Below, piece after piece: positions 24,739 to 43,854 of a DNA stretch of 64,000 nt. The notes below the pieces were generated by a model. It was not told the DNA's origin. It did no database searches and worked only from the letters and a program-made list of their open reading frames with translations. Each line of letters begins with the position of its first letter. The first letter of the stretch is position 1. Source of the DNA: Spirochaetia bacterium (lineage in GTDB: Bacteria > Spirochaetota > Spirochaetia > UBA9216). The translations under genes were made by a program, and so were the position numbers. The stretch lies in the NCBI GenBank assembly GCA_963675665.1, contig OY776510.1:384001-448000 (forward strand), read 5' to 3'.

Positions 24739-24753
24739 TGATAAAATCCTTAT

Positions 24754-25813: not shown

Positions 25814-25906
25814 ACTTTTTTTATCTTCAGCACGAAAGAAAAACCCCGACTTGATTTTTAAGAACTTACATACTAAAGTACTACAATATCACTCTTGGAG
25901 AACAGA

Positions 25907-27800: not shown

Positions 27801-27836
27801 AAAATAAAAAAGCCTTCCCTGAATACAAAGAAGGCT
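27801..27836 (-). terminator. Terminator closing the long minus-strand cluster
   Basis: Minus strand AGCCTTC-N12-GAAGGCT followed by TTTTATTTT. Confidence 0.7.
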
Positions 27837-27855
27837 CCGTTTGATATGACGGATA

Positions 27856-28236
27856 TTATTCTTTTATCGCTATTGCTTCAATCTCAACCAGAGCGTCTTT
27901 GGGCAGTCTTGCCACTTCGACAGCGCTTCTTGCCGGAAAATCTGCAGAAAAGTATTTTGCATAAACTTCATTCATCTTATTGAAATCTTTCATACTGTTG
28001 AGAAAAACTGTAGTCTTTAGAACCTTTCCAAGGCTGCTGTTCTGACTCTCAAGCACAGCTTTCAGGTTCTCCAGGGCCTGCCCGGTCTGCTTTTCAACTG
28101 TTTCGGGCATTTTGCCGGTCTCTGCATCAATGCCTATCTGGCCCGATGTAAAAACCAGCTTTTCAAATGATGCAGCTACAGAATAGGGACCGATTGGTTC
28201 AGGTATCGATTTCCCGCTGTTTATTTCCATACTCAT
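27856..28236 (-). CDS. ridA: RidA family enamine/imine deaminase
   Basis: IGPYS, TSGQI, FPARSAVEVARLPKDALVEIE (catalytic Arg present). Confidence 0.92.
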   Translation of the reverse strand: MSMEINSGKSIPEPIGPYSVAASFEKLVFTSGQIGIDAETGKMPETVEKQTGQALENLKAVLESQNSSLGKVLKTTVFLNSMKDFNKMNEVYAKYFSADFPARSAVEVARLPKDALVEIEAIAIKE

Positions 28237-28262
28237 TTTTCTTCCTCCAAGTTATTAATCAG

Positions 28263-29192
28263 CTACCCGCATTTTGACAGAATAGATTCCCATCTTTTAT
28301 CAACTTCATTTTGAATATCCTGCAGCAAATGCTGATTCTCTTTTTCAAATAGATGCTTAAACCTTCCCTGAGGTTTTAAGAAATCTTCAACCGGAAGTTT
28401 CTTTTTCGGTTCATAGGTAAGCTTCCACTTTCCCTCATCCACTTCAAACATCGGCCAGTAACAGGTATCGGCAGCGAGCCTGCACATCTTCATCATATCT
28501 GCCGTTTCGTACCGCCAGCCTCTGGGACATGGCGCCAGCACATTCAGGAAAGCCGCTCCCTTTTTATATATCGCCTTTTCAGCCTTTTCGTGAATGTCTT
28601 TGAAATTTGTGAGAAAAGTGGTCTGGGCAACATAAGGTATATTATGGGCGGCAATAACGTCGGTCAGTTCCTTCCGGTTCTGAATCTTGCCGCTGCTTTC
28701 CGATCCGACGGGCGTTGTGGTCGTATCAGCATATTGCGGCGTAGCCGACGACCGCTGAATTCCGGTGTTCATATAAGCGCCGTTGTCATAGCAGACATAA
28801 ACCATATCATGATTTCTTTCCATCGCGCCTGAAAGCGACTGGAACCCGATATCATATGTACCTCCGTCGCCTCCGAACGTAATGAATTTGAAATCCTTTT
28901 TAATCCTTCCCCGTCTTTTCAGGGCATTATATGCACCTTCTACCCCGCTTACTGTTGCTGCAGCGTTTTCGAACGCATTATGTATGAAAGAATCTTTCCA
29001 GGATGTATACGGGTACATGAATGTCGACACCTCAAGACACCCTGTGGCACAGCCTATTACTGCCTTGTCTTCGGATTGAACACTTCTTAAAACAGCCCGG
29101 ACGGCAACGGGCGCTCCGCAACCCGCACACATTCGGTGTCCGCCGGCAAGCCTGTCCGGCTTCTGCACAATTTCTTTAAAATTATATGACAT
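28263..29192 (-). CDS. porB: 2-oxoacid:ferredoxin oxidoreductase beta subunit
   Basis: CAGCG, GGDGGTYDIG TPP motif, YMNTGIQRS, PCPRGW. Confidence 0.9.
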   Translation of the reverse strand: MSYNFKEIVQKPDRLAGGHRMCAGCGAPVAVRAVLRSVQSEDKAVIGCATGCLEVSTFMYPYTSWKDSFIHNAFENAAATVSGVEGAYNALKRRGRIKKDFKFITFGGDGGTYDIGFQSLSGAMERNHDMVYVCYDNGAYMNTGIQRSSATPQYADTTTTPVGSESSGKIQNRKELTDVIAAHNIPYVAQTTFLTNFKDIHEKAEKAIYKKGAAFLNVLAPCPRGWRYETADMMKMCRLAADTCYWPMFEVDEGKWKLTYEPKKKLPVEDFLKPQGRFKHLFEKENQHLLQDIQNEVDKRWESILSKCG

Positions 29193-29194
29193 AA

Positions 29195-30376
29195 TTATTC
29201 TCTTACCCCCAGATACCTGAATATTCCGGCAGAATCATCACCTTCAGCAACATCTTCAAGCTCGTTATAAACCTGTCTGATATCATCCGTCCTGACGTCC
29301 CTTCCCCCGAGGCCGTAAACATAGCTGACTACCTTCACAGAGGTTCCGTGTCCGTACAGCGCTGAACGAATCTCGGCGAAAAGCGGCCCGCCGCAGCCGG
29401 ACATACCGTCGCTTTTATCAAGAACTGCAATTGCCTTCAGCCCGCCGAGAGCTTCTTTAATCTCGTCAAACGGAAACGGCCGGAAGACCCTGATCTTCAG
29501 AAGCCCTGCTTTAACCCCGTTTGAACGAAGTTCATCTACAACTGTCTTTGCAGTTCCGGCGGACGAATTGATAACAACAATACCTATTTCTGCATCATTC
29601 AGCTTATATTCCTCAAAGAACCCGTATTCGCGCCCCGTAAGTTTCCGGTACTCTTCGGCTACATCGAGAATTACCTTTCTGGCGTTCAGCATTGCCTGAA
29701 GCTGCTGCCTTTTGCTTTCCATGTAATATGCTGATGTAGCATACGGTCCCAGCGACAAATGAGAATCTTCCGACAAAAGATGGTTTTCAGGGTTATAAGT
29801 TCCTACAAACCCGCTGACTTTTTCATCTTCCAGCAGTTCGATATTTTCCACTGCATGACTTGTGATAAACCCGTCCTGACAAACCATAACCGGAAGCTGA
29901 ACATCAGGATGCTCACCAATCCGCACCGCCTGAATAAGATTATCGTATGCCTCCTGGTTGTCCTCGGAGTAAATCTGAATCCATCCGGCATCTCTTGCGC
30001 CCATTGAATCGCTGTGATCAGCATTAATGTTTATCGGTCCGGAAAGCGCCCTGTTAACACAAGCCATTGTTATCGGAAGTTTCAGCGACGATGCGATATA
30101 AAGCATTTCCCACATCAAAGCCAGCCCGCATGATGAGGTAGCCGTCATCGTTCTGGCTCCGGCTGCCTGCGAGCCGATACACGCGGACATCGCGCTGTGT
30201 TCGGATTCCACGGGAATAAATTCGGTATCTACCAGCCCTCCAGAAACATAGGACGAATAATACTGCGGGATCTCGGTAGAAGGGGTGATTGGAAAAGCCG
30301 GTAAAACATCCGGGTTTATCTGCCTCATGGCAGTTGCGGCAGCCTCATTGCCCGACATTCGCTCATAAACACTCAT
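29195..30376 (-). CDS. porA: 2-oxoacid:ferredoxin oxidoreductase alpha subunit
   Basis: FPITPST, VESEHSAMSA, RALSGPINI; start ATG 30376. Confidence 0.9.
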   Translation of the reverse strand: MSVYERMSGNEAAATAMRQINPDVLPAFPITPSTEIPQYYSSYVSGGLVDTEFIPVESEHSAMSACIGSQAAGARTMTATSSCGLALMWEMLYIASSLKLPITMACVNRALSGPININADHSDSMGARDAGWIQIYSEDNQEAYDNLIQAVRIGEHPDVQLPVMVCQDGFITSHAVENIELLEDEKVSGFVGTYNPENHLLSEDSHLSLGPYATSAYYMESKRQQLQAMLNARKVILDVAEEYRKLTGREYGFFEEYKLNDAEIGIVVINSSAGTAKTVVDELRSNGVKAGLLKIRVFRPFPFDEIKEALGGLKAIAVLDKSDGMSGCGGPLFAEIRSALYGHGTSVKVVSYVYGLGGRDVRTDDIRQVYNELEDVAEGDDSAGIFRYLGVRE

Positions 30377-30678
30377 CAGTTGCCCTCCTTTTCCATCTTC
30401 AGGGCAGAGAACGAACATGCCTGCACACAAATTCCGCAGCCCTTGCATAAATTGAAATTAAACTGCAGTTTATCACCGTCGGCGGTTATCACTGAATCAG
30501 GACACACCGGGATGCATAAATAACAGCTTCTGCATTTACCAGGGTCAAGCTTTGGTTTAAGGCTGCTCCAGTCGCCCGTCCTGAAGTATTCCGAATTTCC
30601 GGCGGAATAAATCGCGCCGCCCGGCGTTATTTCTTTCCAGGAAACATCGGGTTTTATAATATTATTATCCGAACTCAT
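30376..30678 (-). CDS. porD: 2-oxoacid:ferredoxin oxidoreductase delta subunit (2x[4Fe-4S])
   Basis: TGDW, CRSCYLCIPVCP, CKGCGICVQAC. Confidence 0.9.
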   Translation of the reverse strand: MSSDNNIIKPDVSWKEITPGGAIYSAGNSEYFRTGDWSSLKPKLDPGKCRSCYLCIPVCPDSVITADGDKLQFNFNLCKGCGICVQACSFSALKMEKEGN

Positions 30679-31253
30679 ACTCTTCCGACCTCTTCAATTG
30701 CCATTTCCAGGGCCTTCATATTTCCATCGATAACACCCGGCTTTGACGCAAATTTATGCCCGAATGAAGACCTCATCTCATCTATAAAAGTATCTCTGTC
30801 CATAATGCCGCTTACCGTTACTACTGCGGCAAGCATGGGAGTATTGGGAAAATATCTTCCCAATGCAGCTATGGATATTTTTGCGGCGTCAATAACAACG
30901 ACGCGTCCTTTATACCCGTTGAGCTTCCGGACTATCTCCTCGGGTTTCTTTTCCGTATTTATTATTATGGCGCCTGTTTCTTTCAACCCGGCAGTCACAT
31001 CTACTGATTCGATCAACGTTTCATCAACTACCGCAACAAAATCCGGTTCGTATATATTTGAATGTATATTGATTTTACTGCTGCTGATCCTGTTGTATGC
31101 TGTTATGGGCGCGCCCATACGTTCCGGCCCATACTCCGGAAAACCCTGGACAAACCTGCCGGTATTAAAGGCTACATCGGCCAGAAGCAGCGAAGCTGTT
31201 TTTGCTCCCTGCCCGCCGCGGCCGTGCCATCTGATCTCAATTAATTCGGACAT
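30675..31253 (-). CDS. porC: 2-oxoacid:ferredoxin oxidoreductase gamma subunit
   Basis: EIRWHGRGGQGAKT, YGPERMGAP, PNTPML. Confidence 0.9.
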   Translation of the reverse strand: MSELIEIRWHGRGGQGAKTASLLLADVAFNTGRFVQGFPEYGPERMGAPITAYNRISSSKINIHSNIYEPDFVAVVDETLIESVDVTAGLKETGAIIINTEKKPEEIVRKLNGYKGRVVVIDAAKISIAALGRYFPNTPMLAAVVTVSGIMDRDTFIDEMRSSFGHKFASKPGVIDGNMKALEMAIEEVGRV

Positions 31254-31332
31254 ATTCCTCCTCCGTGATATTCTGCTGATACCATAAAAAACGGGAATCC
31301 TGTTAACAAAAAGTTTCCAATATTTACAGCAT

Positions 31333-32517
31333 TTATATCAGGCTAAGCGCGTATTCAAGACTCCTGATGATATCTTCAACATCTTCAATTCCTACAGACA
31401 ACCGAACAAGACCGTCGTCAATCCCCATTTTAGCCCTGTCTTCAGGCTTAAGCATACCGTGTGTCTGCAGAGGCGGCTGCTGTATCATGGTGTCGCAGTC
31501 TCCAAGGCTTACACAGTATTTGGCAATTTCCACATTGTCTGCAAATTTGGTGGCTTTTTCGAGACCTCCCTTAACAATAAACGACATCATGCCGCCGCAG
31601 CCCTGACTACCGAACAATTTTTTCGCGAGTTCGAAATCAGGATGACTTTCAAGTCCCGGATATTCAACCTTTTCGATCTTGTCGTGCTGCTCAAGCCATT
31701 TTGCAACCACAAGCGCATTTTCACTATGCTGCCGCATTCTAAGATGCAGGGTTTTCAGTCCCCTGAGCATCAGCCAGCAGCTGAACGGGCTGGGTACCGG
31801 GCCAAGCTCCTGATAAATCGATGCCCTGATCCTGTCTACAAATTCAGCTTTTCCCACAATAGCCCCGCCGACAAGATCTCCGTGGCCGTTTATATATTTT
31901 GTCGTGCTGTGTACAACTACATCAATGCCGTGTTCAATGGGTCTTACTATATACGGTGTTGTAAATGTACTGTCGACAATGGAAACTATATTGCGCTTTT
32001 TTGCACACGCCGCAAAAGCATCCAGATCAAGGACCTGCATTGTCGGGTTCGCCATAGTTTCCGCATAGAGGACTTTCGTATTCGGACGCATTGCCTTGTC
32101 GATGACATCGTCTGAAAAGTCTTCGACAAAAGTGACGTCTATCTTTAATTCTTCAAAGATCATTGTGAATAGTTTGAAAGAACCGCTGTAGATGGTTTTA
32201 TAAGCGATGATATGGTCACCGGACTGGGCGGCATTCAGCACCGCCAGCGAAATGGCTGCCATTCCCGACGCTGTTACCAGACAACGCTCAGCGTTTTCAA
32301 GACTTGCAATCTTGGCCTGAAGATCATTCTGTGTCGGGTTGCGCGAACGGCCGTAGGTATAAATTCCTTCCTTGTCCCCTGAAAGATAACGTTCCCGGGT
32401 CTCGGGGTCCCAGCAGAATGTGCTTGTCATGTGCATGGGAGCAAGCAACGCCCCTGTCGCCGGATCAATCTTCTGTCCGGCATGTACAGCTTTTGTTCCA
32501 AATTTCATATTTTCCAA
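31333..32517 (-). CDS. PLP-dependent trans-sulfuration family lyase (methionine gamma-lyase-like)
   Basis: SGMAAI, DSTFTTP, HSTTKYINGHGD (PLP Lys), RGLKTL, VSLG, RLSVGIE. Confidence 0.9.
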   Translation of the reverse strand: MENMKFGTKAVHAGQKIDPATGALLAPMHMTSTFCWDPETRERYLSGDKEGIYTYGRSRNPTQNDLQAKIASLENAERCLVTASGMAAISLAVLNAAQSGDHIIAYKTIYSGSFKLFTMIFEELKIDVTFVEDFSDDVIDKAMRPNTKVLYAETMANPTMQVLDLDAFAACAKKRNIVSIVDSTFTTPYIVRPIEHGIDVVVHSTTKYINGHGDLVGGAIVGKAEFVDRIRASIYQELGPVPSPFSCWLMLRGLKTLHLRMRQHSENALVVAKWLEQHDKIEKVEYPGLESHPDFELAKKLFGSQGCGGMMSFIVKGGLEKATKFADNVEIAKYCVSLGDCDTMIQQPPLQTHGMLKPEDRAKMGIDDGLVRLSVGIEDVEDIIRSLEYALSLI

Positions 32518-32519
32518 AT

Positions 32520-33584
32520 CTATTGTCCTCTCTTCTCACTGATTTTTATTGCGATTTTGATGTGTTCGGGCCCGTTTTTTATCAGTTCCTCAAACCCGTC
32601 TTCAACAAGCGTATCAAGGGTTACTTCACGGGTAATCAATTCATCCGCCCCTATAAGACCCTTTGAAAAATAGTCCAGTGCAGTTCCTATTTCATCAAGA
32701 TGCGCCTGCGATGTATACAATTTTCTCTCGCCTTCCTGAAAATCATTCATCCTGAAAACCGGCGGCTCTTCAAACACACCCATCACCATTAATTGGGCGC
32801 CCGGTTTCATCACGCTTATACAGCTGTCAAGCGTGCGCTGAGAACCGACGCATTCATAAACTACATCTGCATTTTTATTATCAGACCATTCGGCTACAGC
32901 CTCATTAAGATCTGTTTTAACAACATCAATATATCTGCCGCCGTAGCTCTCAACAAGAGCCTTCCGATCTTCGCCCACACCGGCAACAAGAACCTTCCCT
33001 GCCCCTGCGAGTTTTGCGGCGAAAAAACATCCCAGTCCGATAATTCCCGGACCTACGATCACAACATCTTTGCCTTTTATGTCTCCAAGCAAACTCGTTG
33101 AATGTATGCCGCATGCGATCGGTTCCGCCAGGACAGCCTGACGAAGGGTTACGTCATCGGGTATTTTAAACAGACGCGAGGCTTCAACTTCTACATATTC
33201 CGCGAAGGCGCCGTCGAGGTTCACTCCGAGAAACCCGAGTTTTTCACAGACATTGTAACGGCCGCTTCTGCACATCTCGCATTTTCCGCAGCAAAGCGTT
33301 CCATTCGCTGTTACCCGGTCTGAAATTTTCCAACCGGAGACACCCTCGCCGACGGCACTGATTACTCCGGTAAATTCATGACCTATGGTCAAAGGCGCCA
33401 TTTTGCCTGTCAAACGGTGCGGTTTTGTTGTCGGTATAAAATTGGGTCCGGTATATTCATGCCGATCGGTTCCGCATATTCCCGCCCATACAACCTCAAT
33501 AACAACATGTCCCGGTTTGGGCTCCGGTACAGGGAGATCGCTGATTCGGATATCCTTGTATCCGTGCCAGACAGCAGCTTTCAT
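32520..33584 (-). CDS. Zn-dependent medium-chain dehydrogenase (butanediol/polyol DH-like)
   Basis: GICGTDRHEY, GHEFTG, CGKCEMC..C, GPGIIG. Confidence 0.9.
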   Translation of the reverse strand: MKAAVWHGYKDIRISDLPVPEPKPGHVVIEVVWAGICGTDRHEYTGPNFIPTTKPHRLTGKMAPLTIGHEFTGVISAVGEGVSGWKISDRVTANGTLCCGKCEMCRSGRYNVCEKLGFLGVNLDGAFAEYVEVEASRLFKIPDDVTLRQAVLAEPIACGIHSTSLLGDIKGKDVVIVGPGIIGLGCFFAAKLAGAGKVLVAGVGEDRKALVESYGGRYIDVVKTDLNEAVAEWSDNKNADVVYECVGSQRTLDSCISVMKPGAQLMVMGVFEEPPVFRMNDFQEGERKLYTSQAHLDEIGTALDYFSKGLIGADELITREVTLDTLVEDGFEELIKNGPEHIKIAIKISEKRGQ

Positions 33585-34567
33585 TATTCGGCACCTCCGG
33601 ACAACAATTTATTGAACAGGTCCTGAAGTATTTTCCCCGGTTTGGCCTCGGTTCCCGTAACAAAATCTGCGGGGATTTTTTCCTTCACAAATTTCATTGC
33701 CCCATTGATAAACGCAATGGAAGCCTTGCAGGCCTCTTCGGGGTCGTCCCGGTAGGGGTATTGATCCAGAGAATACCATCCGTCGTACCCGAGCTTATCC
33801 ATCCAGTAGAAAAACTCAAAAAACTGCAGCCAGTGTACGCTTCCGACAGGCATATCATCATCAACAATACGGTAATTATCATTAACATGTATATGAAATA
33901 ATCTTTTCTGCGAAAAAAGAATCGCTGCGACTTCAGCCGGGTTTTCTCCCGCATTTAGCGCATGTCCCATATCCAGCGTTATGCCTACGTTATCGCATCC
34001 GGTTGATTGTGCAGCAGCCAATGCCATTCCGGCATTCTTGATCATGCAGCTCATTTTGGGCTCGGAAACTTTATACTCAAGCCCGAGATTTATCTGCGAA
34101 TTATGCCCTGCGCATTCTTTCAGGGATTCTATTAAATACTGATAAGCCTTTACATAATCATTCTGAAACAGATAATCAAACCCGTCCTGACCTAACCATA
34201 AAGACACGGTTTTCACGCCGATTGACGCGGCAAAATCCATCGCCTTTTTTACAAGTTCTACCGATTTGCGTCTTCTTTCGGGATCAACAGCCGAAAGAGA
34301 ACCGTCTTTCCATTCCTTGTCGCATACAAGCTCAACGCCCATTCCGATAATACTCAACCCGGCCTTATCAAGTACCGGTTTAACACTGTTCCAGTTATCT
34401 TCGCTTACATCGCAGGGGTATGTGATTTCCATACCGGTTACGCCTTTCAGCCTTGAGATAGCGTGGATACGCTCCTCAAAGTTCATATATTCCTTGTAAC
34501 CGTTGCCGACATAGCGATCGGTTCCCATTCCGTAAACCCATGCGCCGACGCTCAGCTTATTATTCAT
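33584..34567 (-). CDS. Xylose-isomerase-like TIM-barrel sugar isomerase
   Basis: WLGQDGFDY, LEYK..EP, DMGHAL, HIHVND, DDDM metal-ligand pattern. Confidence 0.85.
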   Translation of the reverse strand: MNNKLSVGAWVYGMGTDRYVGNGYKEYMNFEERIHAISRLKGVTGMEITYPCDVSEDNWNSVKPVLDKAGLSIIGMGVELVCDKEWKDGSLSAVDPERRRKSVELVKKAMDFAASIGVKTVSLWLGQDGFDYLFQNDYVKAYQYLIESLKECAGHNSQINLGLEYKVSEPKMSCMIKNAGMALAAAQSTGCDNVGITLDMGHALNAGENPAEVAAILFSQKRLFHIHVNDNYRIVDDDMPVGSVHWLQFFEFFYWMDKLGYDGWYSLDQYPYRDDPEEACKASIAFINGAMKFVKEKIPADFVTGTEAKPGKILQDLFNKLLSGGAE

Positions 34568-34574
34568 ATTAATT

Positions 34575-35480: not shown

Positions 35481-35503
35481 TATTTAAAAACTCCTGCAGA
35501 AAG

Positions 35504-36538: not shown

Positions 36539-36564
36539 ATATTCTCTCCATAATTTAAGTAAAA

Positions 36565-38043
36565 TCAGATTTCAGTTGATCGCCATTTCCAGTAATCACC
36601 CATGTTTTCTTTCAGGTTTAAAAACTTTTGATATAAAGCTTCAAATCTCCCGGCATCCGCCGGATCCGGAACGAATAAATCCGAATCTTCTTCACAGGCA
36701 TCCGGATTATCATCAATTCCAAGGCCAATCTTTATCACTTCAACGATTCCCCTCGCTCCATACTCCCCGCGGTTCAATCGCATTACATTTTTGTTAAGCG
36801 CATGGGCAATCAGCTGGCAGTTCAGATCGCTTGCAGCGCCCCCTCCCGACAGATAAATATTTCCGTCAGCCTCCGGCAGAGCCGTATAACAGTCCTTTAC
36901 TGAAAGAACCATCCCTTCAACAACCGCGCGAAGCATATCAAACCTGGTATGCTTCGCCGTCAGACCGTAAAATCCTCCGCAGGCAAACGGGTTCCTGAAA
37001 GGCGCCCGTTCTCCGCGGATGTAAGGATGATAGATTATCCCCCTGCTTCCGGTCGGAACTTCCGAGAGCGTTTTATTCAGATCCTCGAAACACATGTCTG
37101 GCGCAAGGATCTCTTTAGCCCAGTCAACGGTTGATGTACCGCTGAGAGCGGCCATTACCCTTAGATATTTACCGGGATAAATACTGCAAAGCGCACTGCC
37201 GGCTCTGTCGGAGGTATTCACAGATTCTTCATCAATCAGAACATCATTACAGAGGGTTGTTCCGAGGATCGTACAGCTGTCACCGGATTTTGTAACCCCG
37301 GCGCCTATTGAAGCCGCAACAACATCAATAACGCCCGCAACCACCGGAACCCCCTCGGGAATTCCGGTTTGCTCCATTGCCGCCCTGTTTACTTTGCCGA
37401 CAATATCTGTAGGAGCCGCGAGGGGCGGCAGCATTGCTTTCGTCTCGCCGATATTAAGCAAATCAAACATTTCAGGAACATATTCATGACTGAAAATATT
37501 GATTCCGCAGGTTGAAAAATCCGTGTAATCGCTTGCAATATTCCCGGTCAATTTAAAATTAAGCCAGTCTTTGCATCTGAAGACCTTGTCTATATCAGCA
37601 TATCTGCCCGGCTGGTTCTCTTTAATCCATCTCAGAATAAGCGGGAATGCCCCGGAAAAAAGAGCCGTTGATGAATTCTGCACCAGAAAGCTGTCCAGCT
37701 CTTCTTCGTTAATATTTTTTAAAACTTTAGTACGGGTGTCGTTCCATAAGACAGCATTGCCGGCCGGCCGGCCGTGCCTGTTAACAGCCCACAAACCATC
37801 GCCCTGGGCTGAAATTCCCGTACCGGCAATTTGCTTCCAGGCCTCCGGGTTTCTGAGTTTAAGACGTTTTGTAAAACCGCAAAGCCTGGTCCAAAGATCA
37901 TCCATATCCATTTCAGCAGCGCCTTCAAAAGGCATTTTAACCTCTGCGGAACCGCTTTCCATGTCTATGATGGAACCGTCGGAATCAGCAAGAACTACCT
38001 TAACATTGGTTGTTCCGACATCCATTCCTAAAAGTATCGCCAT
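36565..38043 (-). CDS. FGGY family carbohydrate kinase (erythritol/L-xylulose kinase-like)
   Basis: GMDVGTTNVK, SAQGDGLW, WNDTR, GERAPF, SGGGA. Confidence 0.92.
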   Translation of the reverse strand: MAILLGMDVGTTNVKVVLADSDGSIIDMESGSAEVKMPFEGAAEMDMDDLWTRLCGFTKRLKLRNPEAWKQIAGTGISAQGDGLWAVNRHGRPAGNAVLWNDTRTKVLKNINEEELDSFLVQNSSTALFSGAFPLILRWIKENQPGRYADIDKVFRCKDWLNFKLTGNIASDYTDFSTCGINIFSHEYVPEMFDLLNIGETKAMLPPLAAPTDIVGKVNRAAMEQTGIPEGVPVVAGVIDVVAASIGAGVTKSGDSCTILGTTLCNDVLIDEESVNTSDRAGSALCSIYPGKYLRVMAALSGTSTVDWAKEILAPDMCFEDLNKTLSEVPTGSRGIIYHPYIRGERAPFRNPFACGGFYGLTAKHTRFDMLRAVVEGMVLSVKDCYTALPEADGNIYLSGGGAASDLNCQLIAHALNKNVMRLNRGEYGARGIVEVIKIGLGIDDNPDACEEDSDLFVPDPADAGRFEALYQKFLNLKENMGDYWKWRSTEI

Positions 38044-38049
38044 TTACCG

Positions 38050-38751
38050 TTATTCCCCTAAATATGCCTTACTCAATGAATTATCGGCCAATATTTCATC
38101 CCGGGTTCCGCATTTTTCAATATTTCCAACCGAAAGGATATAGGCCCTGTCGCAGATGGATAATGCCTTAAAGGCATTCTGCTCAACAATCATGATTGCT
38201 GTTCCTGCTTTATTTATTTCAGTAAGGATATCAAAAATCTGATTTACAATAATAGGAGCAAGACCCAATGACGGTTCATCCAGCAGCATAAGCTTCGGCC
38301 GGGCCATAATTCCGCGGCTGATTGCCAGCATCTGCTGTTCTCCTCCGCTTAAATGCCCTCCGTACTGGTTTTCTCTTTCTTCCAGGCGCGGAAAAAGTTT
38401 ATGGACCCTGTCGAGATCCTCTTTTATTCCCTTTATGTCCGTTCTCAAATATGCCCCTACCATGAGATTGTCCCGGACTGTCAGGTGTGTAAAAATCTGA
38501 CGCCCCTCCGGAACATGTACAAGGCCTGTACCGACAACGGCATAATCGCGCTTCGGAACAGGGTTTCCCATAAAGGTTATACTTCCTGCAGTCGGTTTTA
38601 CAACCGAAGAAATACAATTTAACAGGGTAGACTTGCCTGCTCCGTTTGAACCGAGAACGGCAACAACTTCCCCCTCGTTGACCTCGAGCGAAACACCCTT
38701 CAGAGCTTTAATTCCGCCGTAAGCAGCATGCAGGTTATCAATCTTAAGCAT
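38050..38751 (-). CDS. livF: Branched-chain amino acid-type ABC ATPase
   Basis: GSNGAGKST, HVPEGRQIF, LSGGEQQML, DEPSLGLAP. Confidence 0.9.
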   Translation of the reverse strand: MLKIDNLHAAYGGIKALKGVSLEVNEGEVVAVLGSNGAGKSTLLNCISSVVKPTAGSITFMGNPVPKRDYAVVGTGLVHVPEGRQIFTHLTVRDNLMVGAYLRTDIKGIKEDLDRVHKLFPRLEERENQYGGHLSGGEQQMLAISRGIMARPKLMLLDEPSLGLAPIIVNQIFDILTEINKAGTAIMIVEQNAFKALSICDRAYILSVGNIEKCGTRDEILADNSLSKAYLGE

Positions 38752-39517
38752 TTTCCGCTCCTCCTAAATACGCCTCAATTACATGCTCATTACTTTTTAC
38801 TTCCGCCGGTGTACCTGCAGCAATGGTTTTACCGAAGTTAAGAACCGTCACGCAGTCGCACAGGTTTGTTACTACATCCATATGGTGTTCAATCATCAGA
38901 ATCGTCAGATTGAAATTATTCTTGATTTCCAGAATGAATCCTACAAGCTCTTCCGATTCATCCGAGTTCATTCCGGCAGCCGGTTCATCCAGCAGTAAAA
39001 GACTGGGATTGAGAGCTATTGCCCTTGCTATTTCCAGTTTCCGCTGGTGCCCGTAAGGAAGCTTGCATGCAACATCATTATGATTATTCTCAAGCCCCAC
39101 CGCCTCAAGAAGCTTCATTGCTTTTTCTTCTATGCCTTTCTCAATTCTGCGGTATCGCGGTGATCTTAAAAAAGCATCGATATAATTATATTTGGCATCC
39201 ATGCTGCTGGCCAGAATTACATTCTGCAGCACGCTCAGATTTGAAAACAGGCGTATATTCTGAAATGTTCGCCCGATTCCGTATTGAGCTATTCTATAGG
39301 GTTTATTGCCGGTGATATCTTTTTCGTTAAAAATAATAGTACCGCTGCACGGCGCCAGAATCCCGGTTATGTTATTAAAAATCGTTGTTTTACCGGCGCC
39401 GTTGGGTCCTATCAGTCCATGAATTTTACCCGGTTCAATCACAACGCTGAAATCATCAATTGCCCTTACGCCTCCAAAATTCTTGGTTACGTTCTTTATT
39501 TCCAGTACTGGCGTCAT
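38744..39517 (-). CDS. livG: Branched-chain amino acid-type ABC ATPase
   Basis: GPNGAGKTT, RTFQNIRLF, LPYGHQRKLEIARA, IEHHM. Confidence 0.9.
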   Translation of the reverse strand: MTPVLEIKNVTKNFGGVRAIDDFSVVIEPGKIHGLIGPNGAGKTTIFNNITGILAPCSGTIIFNEKDITGNKPYRIAQYGIGRTFQNIRLFSNLSVLQNVILASSMDAKYNYIDAFLRSPRYRRIEKGIEEKAMKLLEAVGLENNHNDVACKLPYGHQRKLEIARAIALNPSLLLLDEPAAGMNSDESEELVGFILEIKNNFNLTILMIEHHMDVVTNLCDCVTVLNFGKTIAAGTPAEVKSNEHVIEAYLGGAENA

Positions 39518-40431
39518 TATTTTTTGACCCCCATATCACATACGGATTCCGCTTCCTTTTTGCCGGAAGCTTTATCTCCAATTCCTCTAAAAAAAGCTAT
39601 TATCCTTCGAATTGAAAATTCTCTGTATCCGAACAAGCCGGACGGCCGCATGGTTATAATCAGAACAACCGCAATTCCGTAGAAAAACATTCTGTAGTTT
39701 GCGAATGATCTGAAAATCTCCGGAAGAAGTGTAACGACCAGAGAGCCGAAAATGGAACCGGTCAGACTTCCCAGCCCGCCGATAACTACCGTTATTGTAA
39801 GCTCGGCAGATTTCGGCAGATTAAACATAATCGGAGACAGAAACATCAGGTTGTGTGCATAAAGGGCGCCGGCCCAGCCGGCCAGCATTGCACTGAATAC
39901 AAAAGCAAGTTTCTTGCTTTTGGTTACGTCTATACCGACAGCTTCAGCTGCTATTTCCTGTTCTCTTATGGCGGTAAAATTTCTGCCGTATTTCGAATGA
40001 ATAAGCGTCCATGCTATTATTACAGTCAGCACAAGACTCACAACAGCAATAGGCAGAGTTGTATACTTCGGGATTCCCGACAAGCCTATTGCTCCACCGG
40101 TCACAGGTTTTATGTAATTAAATAAAACCCTTACCATTTCTCCGAACCCCAGGGTTGTTATCAAAAAGTAATCTCCCTGCAATTTCAGAGTCAGGGAACC
40201 CAGTAAATAAGCAATAAAACCTGCAGCAAGGATACCCACCAGAATGGCAGGAATAAACGGGATGCCCATCTTTGTGGTTAATAATGCGGAAGCATATGCT
40301 CCAATCGACATAAATCCGGCGTTTCCGAAAGAAAACAACCTGGTAAATCCCGTCAGAACCGAGACGCCTAAAACGGCTATCATATTAATACATACAAGAA
40401 TTATTATGCCTTGTGTATAATCAGAAAACAT
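39517..40431 (-). CDS. livM: Branched-chain amino acid-type ABC permease
   Basis: SFGNAGFMSIGAY, GDYFLITTLGFGE, GGLGSLTG. Confidence 0.9.
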   Translation of the reverse strand: MFSDYTQGIIILVCINMIAVLGVSVLTGFTRLFSFGNAGFMSIGAYASALLTTKMGIPFIPAILVGILAAGFIAYLLGSLTLKLQGDYFLITTLGFGEMVRVLFNYIKPVTGGAIGLSGIPKYTTLPIAVVSLVLTVIIAWTLIHSKYGRNFTAIREQEIAAEAVGIDVTKSKKLAFVFSAMLAGWAGALYAHNLMFLSPIMFNLPKSAELTITVVIGGLGSLTGSIFGSLVVTLLPEIFRSFANYRMFFYGIAVVLIITMRPSGLFGYREFSIRRIIAFFRGIGDKASGKKEAESVCDMGVKK

Positions 40432-40448
40432 AGTTTCAAGACTCCTTT

Positions 40449-41321
40449 TTAGGCTTTTTCTTCAACAGTAACACCCATCAAACCGCTGGGTTTAATCAGT
40501 AAGATAGCTATCAGAAGGGCAAAGGTGATCAAGTCTCTAAGTCCCGAGTTTAAATACCCCGAAACCATTGTTTCCGTGATCCCTATTACAATAGCGCCCA
40601 CAATAGCTCCCCTGACACTTCCAAGCCCTCCGAATACTGAAGCTATGAATGCCTTTAATCCGATATTTCCCATAGTCGGATATACATTGTACTTCAATCC
40701 AAGAAGCACTCCCGCAACTCCGGCCAGCGCGCCGGCGATAGCAAACACCAGTGCGAACATTTTATTGATATTAATTCCCAGAAGTCCCGCAGTAGAGCTG
40801 TTTGAAGCAATTGCCCTGATACCGAGTCCTACTTTGGTCTTTGTGATAATGACTTCAAGTATTATCAGCGCTACAGCGGCTACAATCAAAGTTAATAAAT
40901 CCAGTACGCCGACATGGACATTTCCGATAGGTATCGAGGATACGGGAAGAACCGGCGGATATTTTTGAAATTTGGCGCCGAATACAAGCATTGACCCGTT
41001 CTGAAAAACAATTGAAAGCCCCATTGCAGCTATCATCAAAAACATTGTCGGAGATTTGTTTTCCCGAATACGGCGATATGCCAGTCTCTCGTTAAGAAAA
41101 CTAATAAGCCCTGCACCCAGAATACCTATAACGGCTGCGGCTACAAACGGCAGCTGCAGGGATGCTACGAATATCAAAGCTACATATGCGCCCAGCATCG
41201 CGACCTCACCATGAGCCCAGTTTGAAAAGCCCAGAAGACTGTAGATAAGGGCATAACCGGAAGCAATCAGTGCATATACGCCGCCGACCGAAATTCCGTT
41301 TACCAGTTGCTGTAGAAACAT
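40449..41321 (-). CDS. livH: Branched-chain amino acid-type ABC permease
   Basis: QQLVNGI..G.VYALIA, NWAHGE, KAFIASVFGGLG. Confidence 0.9.
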   Translation of the reverse strand: MFLQQLVNGISVGGVYALIASGYALIYSLLGFSNWAHGEVAMLGAYVALIFVASLQLPFVAAAVIGILGAGLISFLNERLAYRRIRENKSPTMFLMIAAMGLSIVFQNGSMLVFGAKFQKYPPVLPVSSIPIGNVHVGVLDLLTLIVAAVALIILEVIITKTKVGLGIRAIASNSSTAGLLGININKMFALVFAIAGALAGVAGVLLGLKYNVYPTMGNIGLKAFIASVFGGLGSVRGAIVGAIVIGITETMVSGYLNSGLRDLITFALLIAILLIKPSGLMGVTVEEKA

Positions 41322-41347
41322 ATATCTTACCTCTCGTTAATTACAAG

Positions 41348-41381
41348 ACAAGAGAGAGGAAGAGGTCCTCCCCTCTCTTGT
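41348..41381 (-). terminator. Stem-loop after binding-protein gene
   Basis: ACAAGAGAG...CTCTCTTGT inverted repeat between livK-like and livH. Confidence 0.5.
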
Positions 41382-41423
41382 TTGTTTTATTTCAATAAAA
41401 TCTTTAAATCGATCAATAATGAT

Positions 41424-42578
41424 CTACTGGTACATCTCTACGAGTACTTCTTTTGCACCTTCAATTGTGAAGATTGCAAGCTCTCTCTGCGGGTTATGTG
41501 TTGCGGGATCTATAGACATATCACCCAGTAATCCGCTGAAATAAGTAGTATTTTCGAGACCTTCCCTGATAGCTTCAGAATCAGCAGAACCTGCTTCTTC
41601 TATTACCTGGGCCAGCCAGAGCACACCGTCGTTTCCGTAAAGACATTCTGCTTCAAGAGCTATATTGTATTCTTCCTGGTATTCAGCTCCGTACCGCATT
41701 GCTTCGGGAGTATTGAACCCGGGTCTTGAACAGAAAAGAGCACCTTCGAGCGCGCCTTCGGCCAGTGTAGGAAGTTCCATCGAATCCCAGCCGTCAAAAC
41801 CGACAAACTGACATGTAAGACCCAGTTCTCTTGCCTGCTTGCTGATAAGAGCAACATCGTTATAGATCCACGGAATAAAAAGGATTTCAGGATTGGCTTT
41901 TTTAATCTTTGAAAGTTGTGCCCTGAAGTCATTATCACCTGTATTGGCTTCTTCAGCTGCTACTATTTTCCCTCCGCCTGCTTCGAAAGCATCAATAGTG
42001 AACTCAGTAAGGCCCGAAGAGTATGAATCGCCTATATTTGTTAATATAGCTGCTGTTTTTACCCCTTTATTCAACATGTACTGTGCCATCTTTGCACCCT
42101 GAAATGAATCAATAAAGCAAAGGCGGAAAGAGTACGGGTGGAGTTTTCCGTTTTCATCTACAGTTACCAGATCGTTAGAAGCTGCGGTAGCAATTACCGG
42201 AACCTTTTTAACATCTGCAACAGCGGCAATAGGAATATTACAGCTGGAGAAGTTTGTTCCGACAACAGCGGCTACTTTGTATTCGTCAACAAGCTTGTTA
42301 TAAGCGTTAACTGAATCCTGAGGATCTCCGCGGCCGTCAAGACCTATTACTTCAATCTGTTTGCCCAATACGCCGCCGGCCTCATTGACTTTTTTGGCAG
42401 TCATAAGCATACCGTTAAGGCCGGCCTGACCCCAAAGCGCTGTGTCGCCGGAGAGAGCGGAGACGTAACCTATTTTTATGGTATCACCATCCGCTGAACT
42501 CTGATCCTCGCCCTGGCCGCCTGCAAAGACGACAGAAGCAATGCTTAATACAAGCAAGATCATCACAAGTTTCTTCAT
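41424..42578 (-). CDS. Amino-acid (LivJ/K-type) ABC substrate-binding protein
   Basis: Signal VFAGGQGE; IKIGYVSALSG, NEAGGVLGK, FRLCFIDSFQG, DFRAQLSKIK. Confidence 0.9.
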   Translation of the reverse strand: MKKLVMILLVLSIASVVFAGGQGEDQSSADGDTIKIGYVSALSGDTALWGQAGLNGMLMTAKKVNEAGGVLGKQIEVIGLDGRGDPQDSVNAYNKLVDEYKVAAVVGTNFSSCNIPIAAVADVKKVPVIATAASNDLVTVDENGKLHPYSFRLCFIDSFQGAKMAQYMLNKGVKTAAILTNIGDSYSSGLTEFTIDAFEAGGGKIVAAEEANTGDNDFRAQLSKIKKANPEILFIPWIYNDVALISKQARELGLTCQFVGFDGWDSMELPTLAEGALEGALFCSRPGFNTPEAMRYGAEYQEEYNIALEAECLYGNDGVLWLAQVIEEAGSADSEAIREGLENTTYFSGLLGDMSIDPATHNPQRELAIFTIEGAKEVLVEMYQ

Positions 42579-42669
42579 CTAATTTCCTCCTCATTAGTGA
42601 GAATCATGTTTTTCATGATTTCTCCTTCTGATTTTATTTGAAGTGATTTTCATCACTTATTAACTGATA

Positions 42670-43614
42670 TCAAATTCCCCGGGTTATTTTCTTTTCAAGT
42701 TCCCTTGCGATTGAACTGTCAATTACAAGAATATCAATGCTTCCGGTCTTTAGTGCCCCATATACTGCATCTGCTTTCCATTCTCCGCCGGCAATTGCTA
42801 TTACCGTGGGGATCTTTTTCAGCATGGACATATCGACTCCCATTACCCGGTTTTGCAGCTGAACTGTCCCGAAATCACCATCCGCCTTAAAATGGTTGAA
42901 GCAGATATCTCCGACATAACCTGAATCAAGAAGCATCCTGAAATCATCGTGACTCAGATAACCCTCAGAAACTATTGTTGATTCTTCTGTCAGCTCTCCA
43001 ACACCCATAATGGCAATATTACATTCATTCATCCGTTCAAAAGCCTGTTTATAAAAGTCTTCTTTTGCAACTTCTTTTACCAGTTTGCTGTTCATTGTTG
43101 CCGGGGCATACAGCATACTGAAATCACAGCCCAGTTTTGAAGCAAGCATTCTTGTAATTTCATCCGGCTTAATTGAATGATTTGTCGTATTAATCCCGCC
43201 TACCAGCTGGACAACAGTACTTTTTGTTTTTCTGGAAGGTCTCAGACACTGTATGGTTTCTCCCAGGGTTATTCCCCATGAAACCCCTATGGTATCTCCG
43301 TCATGAATAAATTCATCCAGAAACTCAGCCGCTTTTCGGCCGAGAACAGTCAATATCGGAAGATCGCTTCCGTCCGTATCTGCAATAACTACCTGCTTTA
43401 AAGAGAACTTCTGTTCAATCAGGTTCTCCAGTTCAACATGTTCATTTTCAATTCCGTTTATCGTAATACTTACAACACCTTCTTCGATCAACGAATTTAC
43501 AAGCTTGTTCACATGCTGACGTGATATCCGCAACTTGTTGGCAATCTGCTCTTGCGTCATATTCGCCTGGTAATACATATAAGCAATTTTTATTAAAGTA
43601 CTTTTATCTGCCAT
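42670..43614 (-). CDS. SorC/DeoR (LsrR-like) sugar-binding transcriptional regulator
   Basis: IAYMYYQANMTQEQIANKLRISR, GVSWGITL, VGDI, IAIAGG..K. Confidence 0.92.
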   Translation of the reverse strand: MADKSTLIKIAYMYYQANMTQEQIANKLRISRQHVNKLVNSLIEEGVVSITINGIENEHVELENLIEQKFSLKQVVIADTDGSDLPILTVLGRKAAEFLDEFIHDGDTIGVSWGITLGETIQCLRPSRKTKSTVVQLVGGINTTNHSIKPDEITRMLASKLGCDFSMLYAPATMNSKLVKEVAKEDFYKQAFERMNECNIAIMGVGELTEESTIVSEGYLSHDDFRMLLDSGYVGDICFNHFKADGDFGTVQLQNRVMGVDMSMLKKIPTVIAIAGGEWKADAVYGALKTGSIDILVIDSSIARELEKKITRGI

Positions 43615-43642: not shown

Positions 43643-43717
43643 TGACTTTTGTCGTCACACCTTACATAAGTCGTCTTTATTGTTTTGAATGATACATTAG
43701 AAATTTCAATCTGTCAA
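43643..43717 (-). promoter_or_regulatory. Promoter and putative SorC operator
   Basis: TTGACA-17bp-TATCAT (43717-43689); downstream paired boxes TGACTTTTGTCG and TTACATAAGTCG. Confidence 0.55.
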
Positions 43718-43854
43718 ATAAATTCAAATCAAAATATAGCAAATCCTTAATAAAGCTTGATTCCGGAGTTATTACAGGTTTTCATCAGACAAATCCGTAA
43801 TAACCATCAAAAAATCGGCTTGCCCAATTTTGTTATCTGTTGCAGAATCATTTT

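Follow-up and report, generated by a model that had tools for sequence, protein, structure and literature searches.

A putative 17-gene operon in a spirochaete and other anaerobes for the use of an amino acid-pentose conjugate, possibly S-ribosylhomocysteine

The DNA considered here, termed the window, is a stretch of 64,000 nt from the genome of a Spirochaetia bacterium (G000; 5.15 Mb in a single contig, 96% complete). On its minus strand, 17 consecutive, co-oriented open reading frames run from 43614 to 27856 (Table 1). They encode a SorC-type regulator, a Liv-type importer with its substrate-binding protein (SBP), an FGGY kinase, two zinc-dependent dehydrogenases (ZnDH1 and ZnDH2), a C_GCAxxG_C_C protein (CGCA), a xylose-isomerase-like TIM barrel, a pyridoxal phosphate (PLP) gamma-lyase, the four subunits of a 2-oxoacid:ferredoxin oxidoreductase (POR) and RidA. 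An earlier note on this DNA put the number of genes at 16; the families that it named agree with Pfam and NCBIfam, but the count does not, as the list of open reading frames and the note's own list both come to 17. The best explanation, given a probability of about 0.4 as a whole, is that the 17 genes constitute one conserved operon for the use of a single nutrient that carries an alpha-amino-acid head and a pentose or polyol tail. The likely compound would be S-ribosylhomocysteine (SRH), the product of S-adenosylhomocysteine (SAH) nucleosidase and a remnant of cellular methylation, or a close S-(5-deoxypentosyl)homocysteine.

How widely is the arrangement kept? ZnDH1 served as the query of a scan with one genome per species, which gave 24 loci, and all 17 proteins were then laid on these loci by tblastn (L labels mark the loci compared, some of them metagenomic, and G labels mark genomes). 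The cluster is kept in 23 of the 24, from 22 other genomes; the 24th locus carries a gammaproteobacterial paralogue with 31% identity. Conservation on this scale argues that the arrangement is not due to chance. Host labels are Oscillospiraceae, Clostridia, Bacillota, Eubacteriales and Tissierellales, together with two Spirochaetia; the carriers are anaerobic gut and sediment bacteria of the Bacillota and Spirochaetota, and the operon is rare but widely transferred. The lyase is found in all 20 related loci whose DNA covers its position, and a Liv-type importer in 20 of the 21 that extend upstream, the exception being L023, where unrelated genes are found instead. Orthologues of the SorC regulator are present in 17 related loci. 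The strict core consists of the importer, the FGGY kinase, ZnDH1, CGCA, ZnDH2 and the lyase. The earlier note had let its proposal depend on whether a sugar half and an amino-acid half occur together in other genomes, and they do so in 22 of them, from two phyla.

The linkage is also exclusive in two samples, one of 121 genomes from the family of G051 (8 with the cluster and 113 cluster-free) and one of 201 genomes, at least 90% complete, from the order of G045. In the family sample, the genomes with an SBP orthologue (743-754 bits) are precisely the 8 that carry the cluster, the next match scoring 520 bits and the rest 366 or less. Lyase orthologues (772-785 bits) are present in 7 of these 8 genomes, and in the eighth, G043, the cluster is cut by a contig end. 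In the order sample, a lyase orthologue is found in G045 alone (787 bits; others 405 or less). SBP and lyase are, in this respect, dedicated components that are inherited together with the sugar genes. The 520-bit relative of the SBP, which falls between orthologues (about 750 bits) and paralogues, belongs to a cluster-free family member (G335:C23:39459-40670), where the surrounding genes may point to a related pathway.

Could the cluster represent two independent modules that are merely co-regulated? One would take up methionine or homocysteine and degrade it by gamma-lyase and POR, the other would catabolise a free pentitol or tetritol, and the two might be coupled only by redox balance, between NADH from polyol oxidation and the oxoacid or ferredoxin. 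The lyase, POR and RidA would be sensible alone as methionine catabolism, and a sugar module (SorC, FGGY, zinc dehydrogenase, TIM barrel, CGCA, with or without the flavoprotein partner of CGCA described below) does stand alone in many metagenome loci, among them L057, L059, L063, L072 and L081. A D-2-hydroxyacid dehydrogenase, encoded in L018 and L034, could reduce the oxoacid. In the window, a 79-nt spacer parts the lyase gene from the por genes; promoter and terminator calls here are consensus matches only, and direct reading of the spacer gives a weak TTGTTA-17-TATGGT (8 of 12 positions, under the scan threshold), while the consensus scan found no terminator-like site in 31254-31332. The sole transporter, however, is of the amino-acid type, so that a free polyol would be left without an entry route, and in the samples searched the lyase and SBP orthologues never occur without sugar genes. 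The gene order in L035 (Tissierellales) and L047 (a marine metagenome) is SBP-LivHMGF-TIM-ZnDH2-AldII-lyase-FGGY-ZnDH1-CGCA-PorCDAB, AldII being an AraD-like enzyme discussed below; as the lyase is placed between sugar genes there, lyase and sugar genes are intermixed. In all other loci ZnDH2 is immediately upstream of the lyase, with a gap of 2 nt in the window. The lyase has, in addition, lost the cysteine specific to methionine gamma-lyase (MGL). A pair of separate modules is thus quite unlikely, and the reading as a single pathway is well supported by comparative genomics.

Protein families were assigned with Pfam and NCBIfam, with bit scores read against the curated cut-offs. Over the 17 proteins, all NCBIfam scores are under the cut-off except those with the PorC, PorD and RidA subfamily models. 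The importer has the complete set of Liv-type parts in Pfam (Peripla_BP_6, two BPD_transp_2 permeases and two ATPases), and its five proteins are all under the equivalog cut-offs, e.g. 130.8 against 477 bits for the SBP. Nearest among solved relatives of the SBP are amino-acid binders, namely 3td9 (172 bits), 4gnr, 3ipc, the Agrobacterium 3ip5 series, LivK and LivJ. LivK W18, S79, Y150 and E226 have equivalents in the SBP (the last as Asp), and none of these varies among 17 aligned SBP orthologues. Of the LivK residues that hold the alpha-amino and alpha-carboxylate groups of the ligand, S79, Y150 and E226 (as Asp) are among those retained, but T102 is replaced by Ser and Y202 by Ile (I238). 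L77 and C78 are replaced by N109 and F110, and a loop that is 4 residues longer than in LivK carries invariant polar residues. To judge by these residues, the ligand would have an amino-acid end but a side chain that is bulkier and more polar than those bound by LivK, and the SBP is likely to be the specificity determinant of the system.

The lyase belongs to the MGL clade. Its closest solved relative is Citrobacter MGL (4mkk, 373 bits), followed by the MGLs of Clostridium, Fusobacterium, Trichomonas and Pseudomonas; matches to cystathionine lyases reach only about 310 bits and those to O-acylhomoserine enzymes about 290. The MGL equivalogs are not reached (TIGR01328, 420.2 bits against a cut-off of 549.7; NF004876, 409.8 against 666). 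When the protein is aligned with Citrobacter MGL, its K207, which binds PLP, Y110, D182 and the carboxylate-binding R372 fall on the catalytic residues, and all four are the same in each of the 17 orthologues compared. Where MGL has its specific cysteine, the protein has Gly112, within a Y-S-G-S motif; this glycine too is invariant in the 17 orthologues, the Citrobacter chain in the alignment being itself a mutant at that position. This cysteine (Cys115/116) is the active-site residue next to the catalytic tyrosine. It tunes the enzyme towards methionine, and cystathionine lyases, which handle bulkier S-substituents, have glycine there. The protein is best called a putative MGL-clade gamma-lyase whose preference for an S-substituent is left unassigned by its sequence. 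The spirochaete genome holds no other close paralogue, the next best having 34% identity.

The oxoacid step appears to be kept even where its enzyme is not. In the window, the features of a four-subunit 2-oxoacid:ferredoxin oxidoreductase are present (POR_N, PFOR_II and TPP_enzyme_C domains; PorC and PorD above their cut-offs), and the choice of oxoacid is left open by PorA and PorB, which are below the equivalog cut-offs (483 against 550 and 347 against 405 bits). porCDAB is found in 13 of the 18 loci with enough DNA, whereas L020 and L022 have E1alpha, E1beta and E2 of a pyruvate dehydrogenase (PDH)-type complex in its place; L016, L021 and L028 have neither. As POR or a PDH-type complex occurs in different loci, a need for 2-oxoacid oxidation seems to be met by unrelated enzymes, and the oxidation step of the earlier note holds as a conserved one, through non-orthologous replacement (13 loci with POR, 2 with the PDH type). 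A second porCDAB set, with 67-75% identity to that of the window, lies elsewhere in the same genome, and the window POR is a dedicated paralogue. ridA, listed in the note as part of the gene set, is not in the conserved core: it is in position only in the window and in L033, and L015 has a copy on the opposite strand.

Turning to the sugar enzymes, the regulator scores 226 bits with NF053881 (cut-off 420) and 142.3 bits with the LsrR model (cut-off 486). The FGGY kinase reaches 93.5 bits with the model for LsrK, the autoinducer-2 (AI-2) kinase (cut-off 528), and 111 bits with glycerol kinase; no solved relative was found at E<=1e-40. ZnDH1 is nearest to archaeal threonine dehydrogenases and sorbitol dehydrogenases, and the TIM barrel to an uncharacterised 'xylose isomerase', 3ktc, and then to true xylose and rhamnose isomerases. 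The TIM barrel is present in 17 of 22 loci and absent in L018, L022, L032, L034 and L036. All five of the latter carry an AraD-like class II aldolase/epimerase (AldII), and three loci have both. AldII, found in 8 related loci, has L-ribulose-5-phosphate 4-epimerase as its best model (177 bits, below the cut-off of 251), and in L015 and L028 its gene is succeeded by those of a split transketolase. A XylB-like kinase, a 4-epimerase-like AldII and a transketolase together suggest that the tail has five carbons and is finally turned into a pentulose 5-phosphate.

Genes of the LsrF type, found only beside the L016 cluster and elsewhere in the spirochaete genome, offer a lead. An LsrF-type thiolase (NF006081, 409 bits, above the cut-off of 297) is encoded three genes downstream of the L016 cluster. 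There, at L039:1056-4740 of an Oscillospiraceae-labelled record, the lyase gene is directly followed by genes for another SorC regulator, for DhaL and DhaK, and for this LsrF-type protein. In the spirochaete genome, C1:1895000-1914000 (L040) has an LsrF-type thiolase/aldolase (477 bits, again above the cut-off) next to a 193-residue C_GCAxxG paralogue, an SDR protein and a DeoR regulator, with a ribose-type ABC system and a rhamnulokinase-like FGGY kinase in divergent orientation. Such genes would fit the breakdown of a phosphorylated deoxy-diketopentose, but they lie outside the conserved cluster and are a lead only.

How might the components act together? The Liv-type ABC system would import the compound, recognising its amino-acid end. 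The tail would be worked up by the two zinc dehydrogenases and the metal-dependent TIM-barrel isomerase or epimerase, which an AraD-like class II enzyme would replace or join in other carriers, and be phosphorylated by the xylulokinase-like kinase; the phosphosugar product is the likely inducer that would release the SorC repressor. The MGL-clade lyase would turn the head into 2-oxobutyrate and ammonia, RidA would clear the enamine, and POR or a PDH-type complex would make propionyl-CoA from the oxoacid, POR also giving reduced ferredoxin. Two orders of events can be drawn. In the first (a), the lyase would gamma-eliminate the thioether at the outset, yielding 2-oxobutyrate, ammonia and a 5-thiopentose, which the dehydrogenases, isomerase and kinase would then process. 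In the second (b), redox and isomerase steps would set a carbonyl on the ribosyl part, and homocysteine would leave by beta-elimination; ZnDH2 would reduce the remaining deoxy-diketo- or ketopentose, the XylB-like kinase would add a phosphate at C5, and the lyase would act as a homocysteine desulfhydrase. LuxS and SAH hydrolase work on the same principle of carbonyl-enabled beta-elimination. The earlier note had the lyase act first and release a thiosugar; that order survives as one of two that fit the genes equally well. SRH, which the earlier note also proposed, is a plausible substrate, and the simplest candidate that follows from the lyase clade, the amino-acid importer and a work-up of pentose type.

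The same logic might nevertheless serve another conjugate, such as S-(2,3-dihydroxypropyl)cysteine set free when bacterial lipoproteins are degraded, a (homo)serine or (homo)cysteine that bears an S- or O-linked glycosyl group or an O-linked polyol, or a polyhydroxy amino acid made ready for gamma-elimination by the kinase. Linkage, exclusivity and the oxoacid step support this equally, and MGL-family enzymes also beta-eliminate and accept O-substituted substrates. PorA and PorB match pyruvate synthase models best, which would fit a cysteine or serine head; ZnDH2 is nearest to a small-diol dehydrogenase (6ie0) and ZnDH1 to threonine dehydrogenases, and a substrate of the necromass type would explain the importer better than SRH does. 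A C3 tail, on the other hand, would need no isomerase or epimerase, AraD-like enzyme or transketolase, the kinase is XylB-like (279 bits) and not glycerol-kinase-like (111 bits), and the lyase is nearest to homocysteine-thioether lyases rather than to O-acyl-homoserine enzymes. A different conjugate would also leave unexplained the depletion of LuxS and SAH hydrolase in the carriers, described below, and is judged a somewhat unlikely, if serious, contender.

The CGCA protein merits separate comment. It scores 78.4 bits with PF09719 (cut-off 27) and 41 with TIGR01909 (cut-off 47.4), and five cysteines (148, 151, 186, 237 and 271, which include a CxxC pair) are invariant in 19 of 19 CGCA sequences. 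A TGA had been flagged as a possible selenocysteine codon; it is the natural stop, and no in-frame selenocysteine codon was seen. A sequence-profile search of the PDB gave only a designed repeat protein (E 9e-4, attributed to chance), so that by sequence the family is without a solved structure, and a Foldseek search of the model against the PDB gave nothing at E<=0.001. The AlphaFold model is all-helical (pLDDT 88, pTM 0.89). Residues 127-291 resemble split-Soret cytochrome c (1h21_A; Z 12.5, root-mean-square deviation 3.2 over 139 residues; next unrelated match Z <=6) and residues 7-118 the C-terminal helical domain of mannitol-1-phosphate/mannitol dehydrogenases (3h2z_A, Z 10.8, then 9.1, 7.8, 7.5 and 6.5), with the proviso that helical matches below about Z 13 can be generic. 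The part of 1h21_A that is matched is the domain described for a 'novel iron centre'. According to the model, CGCA is probably a redox protein with a metal or iron-sulfur centre, joined to a polyol-dehydrogenase-like domain, and the model is a possible first structural handle on the C_GCAxxG_C_C family.

Of the 22 related loci that cover the position, 19 have, directly after CGCA, a gene for a flavoprotein that resembles CoA-disulfide reductase and ends in a rhodanese domain (CoADR-RHD, about 545-590 residues), presumably of the persulfide-reductase type; the gene is absent from the window cluster, L033, L035 and L036. CGCA and CoADR-RHD are fused in one open reading frame of 845-850 residues in L023:11036-13588 and L045:9929-12481, whose DNA is 100% identical over the fusion, so that the two are not independent. 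Elsewhere, the spirochaete genome has only an 836-residue CoADR-RHD-TusA-DsrE fusion with 50% identity, at C1:646235-648745 (L041:6235-8745, minus strand), beside a molybdopterin oxidoreductase gene. A metagenome scan also located long-form CGCA homologues (33-49% identity) in sugar clusters without lyase and without Liv (L057, L059, L063, L064/L052, L072/L074, L081 and L088), among FGGY, PfkB or Dak kinases, zinc or mannitol dehydrogenases, TIM barrels, SIS, Rpe, HUMPS and SorC proteins. The L072/L074 cluster family holds CoADR-rhodanese too, and L073 has a CoADR-RHD/CGCA pair among unrelated genes. CGCA looks like a general redox accessory of anaerobic sugar and polyol clusters. Further genes seen in these clusters are a glycyl-radical enzyme with its activase (L063) and a nucleoside hydrolase (L081).

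What of SAH in the carriers? Its recycling is treated as universal and as having two forms only, SAH hydrolase or Pfs (MtnN) with LuxS. LuxS (PF02664) gave no match in the spirochaete genome at its 96% completeness, a control search being positive in 5 out of a set of 14 reference genomes. The genome does encode SAH hydrolase and an MtnN, which scores 111 bits against a cut-off of 73.8. Among the 22 other cluster genomes LuxS is found in 4, SAH hydrolase in 3 and MtnN above its cut-off in 15. All 23 taken together, 4 have LuxS, 4 have SAH hydrolase and 15 neither, and MtnN exceeds its cut-off in 16, 10 of them among the 15 with neither enzyme. In the order sample, 83 genomes have LuxS and 82 SAH hydrolase, with one overlap, and 37 of 201 have neither; these include G045, the figure for the others being 36 of 200. 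The family sample has 5 with LuxS and 83 with SAH hydrolase, again with one overlap, and both enzymes are missing from 8 of 8 cluster genomes against 26 of 113 cluster-free ones. One-sided Fisher tests, not corrected for kinship, give p = 4.7e-6 against the order sample and 2.0e-5 in the family sample. Taken by itself, LuxS separates carriers from the rest poorly, with 4 of 22 among cluster genomes, 83 of 201 in the order sample and no more than 5 of 121 in the family sample. By these counts, cluster genomes are depleted in both known SAH-recycling enzymes, an independent line of evidence for SRH, though indirect and confounded by kinship. About a fifth of these Bacillota (37 of 201 in the order sample, 34 of 121 in the family sample) are without both enzymes, and the question of how SAH and SRH are handled is wider than the cluster.

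A larger claim can be built on this depletion, and it is put forward tentatively, as credible but doubtful: the operon could be a third way for the SAH branch of S-adenosylmethionine (SAM) metabolism, independent of LuxS and SAH hydrolase, in which SRH, made by MtnN or scavenged from neighbours, would be imported or retained and then split, by redox and isomerase chemistry together with a specialised gamma-lyase, to a phosphorylated (deoxy)pentulose and 2-oxobutyrate with a gain of energy. The DHAP (dihydroxyacetone phosphate) shunt paper states, in its general passages, that all organisms recycle SAH via some form of active methyl cycle, and mentions that E. coli excretes methylthioribose and 5-deoxyribose (PMC10441430). 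Universal recycling and this excretion make a missing route and an external ribosyl pool plausible, although neither is specific to SRH. Might the operon instead be for housekeeping, i.e. for salvaging internal SRH without the help of LuxS or SAH hydrolase, so that homocysteine re-enters the methyl cycle and the lyase acts only on surplus or in gamma-replacement? The 15 of 23 cluster genomes that are without both known routes, 10 of them with MtnN, speak for this, as does the complete absence of both enzymes from the carriers of the family sample. A high-affinity importer and a phosphosugar-responsive repressor, however, mark an inducible nutrient pathway, and a POR reserved for this pathway suggests that energy is gained. 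SAH hydrolase is present in the spirochaete carriers, and only 1 of 201 genomes in the order sample has the cluster at all. Internal salvage is given a low probability.

Several observations weigh against SRH as the nutrient, and some of them against the proposal as a whole. The spirochaete studied and the two other spirochaete carriers have SAH hydrolase and four Bacillota carriers have LuxS; as 8 of 23 carriers have one or the other, the cluster is not a simple replacement for these enzymes. The 26 cluster-free members of the family that also do without both show that the absence can occur without the operon, and the 8 carriers in that family may represent one or few evolutionary events. For genomes that were reached through their loci, no completeness figure stands behind the absence of LuxS and SAH hydrolase. 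MtnN above its cut-off is wanting in 7 of the 22 other cluster genomes, and in none of the 23 loci was a nucleosidase, a SAM-cycle gene or a SAM/SAH riboswitch found. With an ABC importer, SRH would have to be supplied from outside the cell. The specificities of kinase, dehydrogenases, isomerase and lyase are left open by scores under the NCBIfam equivalog cut-offs. A thiol nucleophile in CGCA, together with CoADR-rhodanese, had been considered as proof of C-S or persulfide chemistry; this was dropped in view of the lyase-free homologues and the iron-centre-like model. As both proteins occur in sugar clusters without a lyase, they are silent on sulfur.

Table 1. Features of the putative operon and its signals, in the order of transcription (positions in the window).
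Feature	Position	Strand	Basis
Promoter-like site TTGACA-17-TATCAT, upstream of regulator gene	43689..43717	-	11/12 consensus positions
SorC/DeoR(Bacillus)-type regulator, phosphosugar-binding domain	42670..43614	-	PF04198 205.7 bits
Peripla_BP_6 (HAAT/LivJ-type) SBP, predicted secreted	41424..42578	-	Pfam; signal peptide
15-pair GC-rich hairpin, no T-rich tail, between SBP gene and livH	41348..41381	-	
LivH-like permease	40449..41321	-	PF02653 (BPD_transp_2) 141 bits
LivM-like permease	39517..40431	-	PF02653 (BPD_transp_2) 138 bits
LivG-like ATPase	38744..39517	-	NF008449 266 bits, cut-off 362
LivF-like ATPase	38050..38751	-	NF008626 230 bits, cut-off 441
FGGY kinase, xylulokinase-like	36565..38043	-	TIGR01312 (XylB) 279 bits, cut-off 380
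ZnDH1, threonine/sorbitol-dehydrogenase-like	35504..36538	-	2dfv 202 bits
CGCA (C_GCAxxG_C_C protein), 301 residues, two-domain	34575..35480	-	PF09719 at residues 148-285
Xylose-isomerase-like TIM barrel (isomerase, epimerase or eliminase)	33584..34567	-	3ktc 187.5 bits
ZnDH2, (R,R)-butanediol-dehydrogenase-like	32520..33584	-	6ie0 214 bits
PLP gamma-lyase, MGL clade	31333..32517	-	Cys_Met_Meta_PP PF01053 451 bits
Lyase-porC spacer, 79 nt	31254..31332	-	
PorC, gamma subunit	30675..31253	-	TIGR02175 216.4 bits, above cut-off 81.1
PorD, delta subunit, 2x[4Fe-4S]	30376..30678	-	TIGR02179 80.8 bits, above cut-off 60.05
PorA, alpha subunit	29195..30379	-	NF040682 483 bits, cut-off 550
PorB, beta subunit, thiamine pyrophosphate (TPP)	28263..29192	-	NF008819 347 bits, cut-off 405
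RidA, enamine/imine deaminase	27856..28236	-	TIGR00004 154.1 bits, above cut-off 106.25
Terminator-like hairpin and T-run just past ridA	27809..27838	-	13 pairs, tail TTTATTTTAA

The layout is compact. By the coordinates of the open reading frames, genes overlap or are at most 26 nt apart, except at three places, i.e. between the SorC and SBP genes (91 nt), between the SBP gene and livH (102 nt, with a hairpin inside) and between lyase and porC (79 nt). The start of PorA is most likely at 30379, where an AGGAGG-type site lies upstream, and not at 30448. The hairpin that precedes livH may act in transcript processing or attenuation, and might in this way favour the binding protein over the membrane parts. 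Promoter-like sites in the region number 18, fewer than in shuffled sequences (28.3 +/- 6.2), and terminator-like sites 36, more than in the shuffles (18.1 +/- 4.8). The GC content is 0.43-0.49 within the cluster and falls to 0.39-0.40 in the 1-kb bins at either edge. No Rfam match was found in the window between 26000 and 45000 at E<=0.1, and at the gathering score the 21 related loci gave two tRNAs only and no riboswitch.

Beyond the terminator-like site lie a GNAT acetyltransferase gene (27271-27741, minus strand), a GntR/FCD regulator gene (25895-26614, plus strand) and genes of a TRAP transporter, DctPQM (22979-25755, minus strand). On the other side are genes for a RadA/Sms-like ATPase (43840-45198, plus strand), a TraB-family protein (45185-46438, minus strand) and a TPR protein, in a flanking stretch that reaches to 47951. 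The L037 cluster is likewise flanked by RadA and TraB genes, and the L033 cluster is followed by a GNAT gene. Upstream of the transporter-less cluster of L023, a termite-associated record, SelA and SelB genes and then a defence-like pair, AAA_21 ATPase and DUF4276, are found (L023:594-5898).

What would such an operon mean? If the substrate is SRH, the operon, which is enriched in genomes that have neither form of SAH recycling, supplies a step that the core SAM cycle of many uncultured anaerobes has been missing, and removes the AI-2 precursor from the community. New specificities would then be present in five families: a hydrophobic-amino-acid-type (HAAT) SBP for a glyco-amino acid, a Cys-less MGL-clade lyase, two zinc dehydrogenases and the TIM barrel. 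Should the operon indeed be a third route for SAH, it would account for how anaerobes without both enzymes escape a dead-end metabolite, would make SRH an exchanged public good, and would give the C_GCAxxG family, as the two-domain partner of the CoADR-rhodanese flavoprotein, its first physiological setting. Even with another conjugate, the cluster would represent a rare case of an amino-acid-type ABC importer that feeds a sugar pathway. As the SBP is small and secreted and has clean orthologues, the question of substrate is directly testable.

A search of the full-text literature found no described pathway with this gene set, in agreement with the earlier note; nor was a described SRH catabolic operon found in that search, which did not cover supplements. 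The cluster is probably a catabolic or salvage route built from known enzyme families and new as a route, and its parts can be compared with several established systems. By the defining features compared, it is not a Liv system, an Lsr system, a canonical MGL locus, a DHAP shunt or an MTA-isoprenoid shunt. The importer has the component set of LivJ/K-HMGF and differs in lacking the equivalog-level scores and the hydrophobic side-chain pocket of that system. MGL catabolism in anaerobes, which leads by way of 2-oxobutyrate to propionate, employs a lyase of the same clade with the same PLP catalytic residues and likewise requires RidA and a 2-oxoacid oxidoreductase for the later steps. The lyase described here, however, has an invariant glycine for the active-site cysteine and a score of 420 against a cut-off of 550, and in the order and family samples its orthogroup is never found apart from sugar genes.

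The Pfs (MtnN)/LuxS branch would share the metabolite SRH and would likewise end in homocysteine, or its breakdown products, and a C5 fragment. LuxS is a metal-dependent enzyme that isomerises and then eliminates, and the chemistry proposed for the TIM barrel mirrors this. In contrast, LuxS is absent from the spirochaete genome and from 18 of the 22 other carriers, and the cluster adds to the enzymology an importer, a kinase, a pair of NAD(P)-dehydrogenases, POR and a PLP lyase. The carbon would be burnt and not released as AI-2. With the Lsr system (LsrACDB, LsrK, LsrR, LsrF, LsrG) the cluster shares the grouping, within a single operon, of an ABC importer with an FGGY kinase and a repressor of the SorC family, as well as the probable type of inducer, a phosphorylated C5 derivative of SRH. 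The differences are that the SBP is Peripla_BP_6 and not of the ribose/LsrB type, that the matches to LsrR and LsrK are below the cut-offs, and that LsrF and LsrG are not among the 17 genes.

The DHAP and MTA (methylthioadenosine)-isoprenoid shunts have the same theme, the use of 5-substituted riboses that arise from the use of SAM (5-methylthioribose, 5-deoxyribose), by means of an isomerase, a kinase and a class II aldolase. In the part of the MTA-isoprenoid shunt treated in PMC5893883, a thiol-dependent methylsulfurylase removes the sulfur substituent from a 1-thio-ketopentose 5-phosphate to give DXP (1-deoxyxylulose 5-phosphate), a step that is a precedent for the removal of a sulfur substituent from a ketopentose phosphate. 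By Pfam and NCBIfam, MtnK, MtnA, Ald2, the RuBisCO-like protein (RLP) and the cupin of these shunts are absent among the 17 products, and the substituent would here be homocysteine, hence the need for an amino-acid importer and a PLP lyase.

To our knowledge, the fructoselysine and fructose-asparagine (Amadori) loci are the only well-known bacterial operons for conjugates of sugars and amino acids. They likewise combine a kinase, a TIM-barrel epimerase and a dedicated importer. Their N-substituted amino group, however, cannot form a PLP aldimine, and they have a PfkB kinase and an SIS deglycase that are not present here; the match to fructoselysine 3-epimerase has an E value of only 5e-5. Clusters for polyols (tetritols and pentitols) and of the L-ascorbate type carry a zinc polyol dehydrogenase, an FGGY kinase, a TIM-barrel isomerase or 3-epimerase and an AraD-like 4-epimerase. 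The sugar genes of the operon belong to the same enzyme families and are under the same SorC control, and lyase-free versions with CGCA are found in metagenomes, but polyol and pentulose-phosphate clusters use sugar-type binding proteins and have no PLP lyase and no POR. Judged from its genes, the cluster appears to combine the workings of a pentitol/pentulose cluster with those of an MGL-POR module for amino acids.

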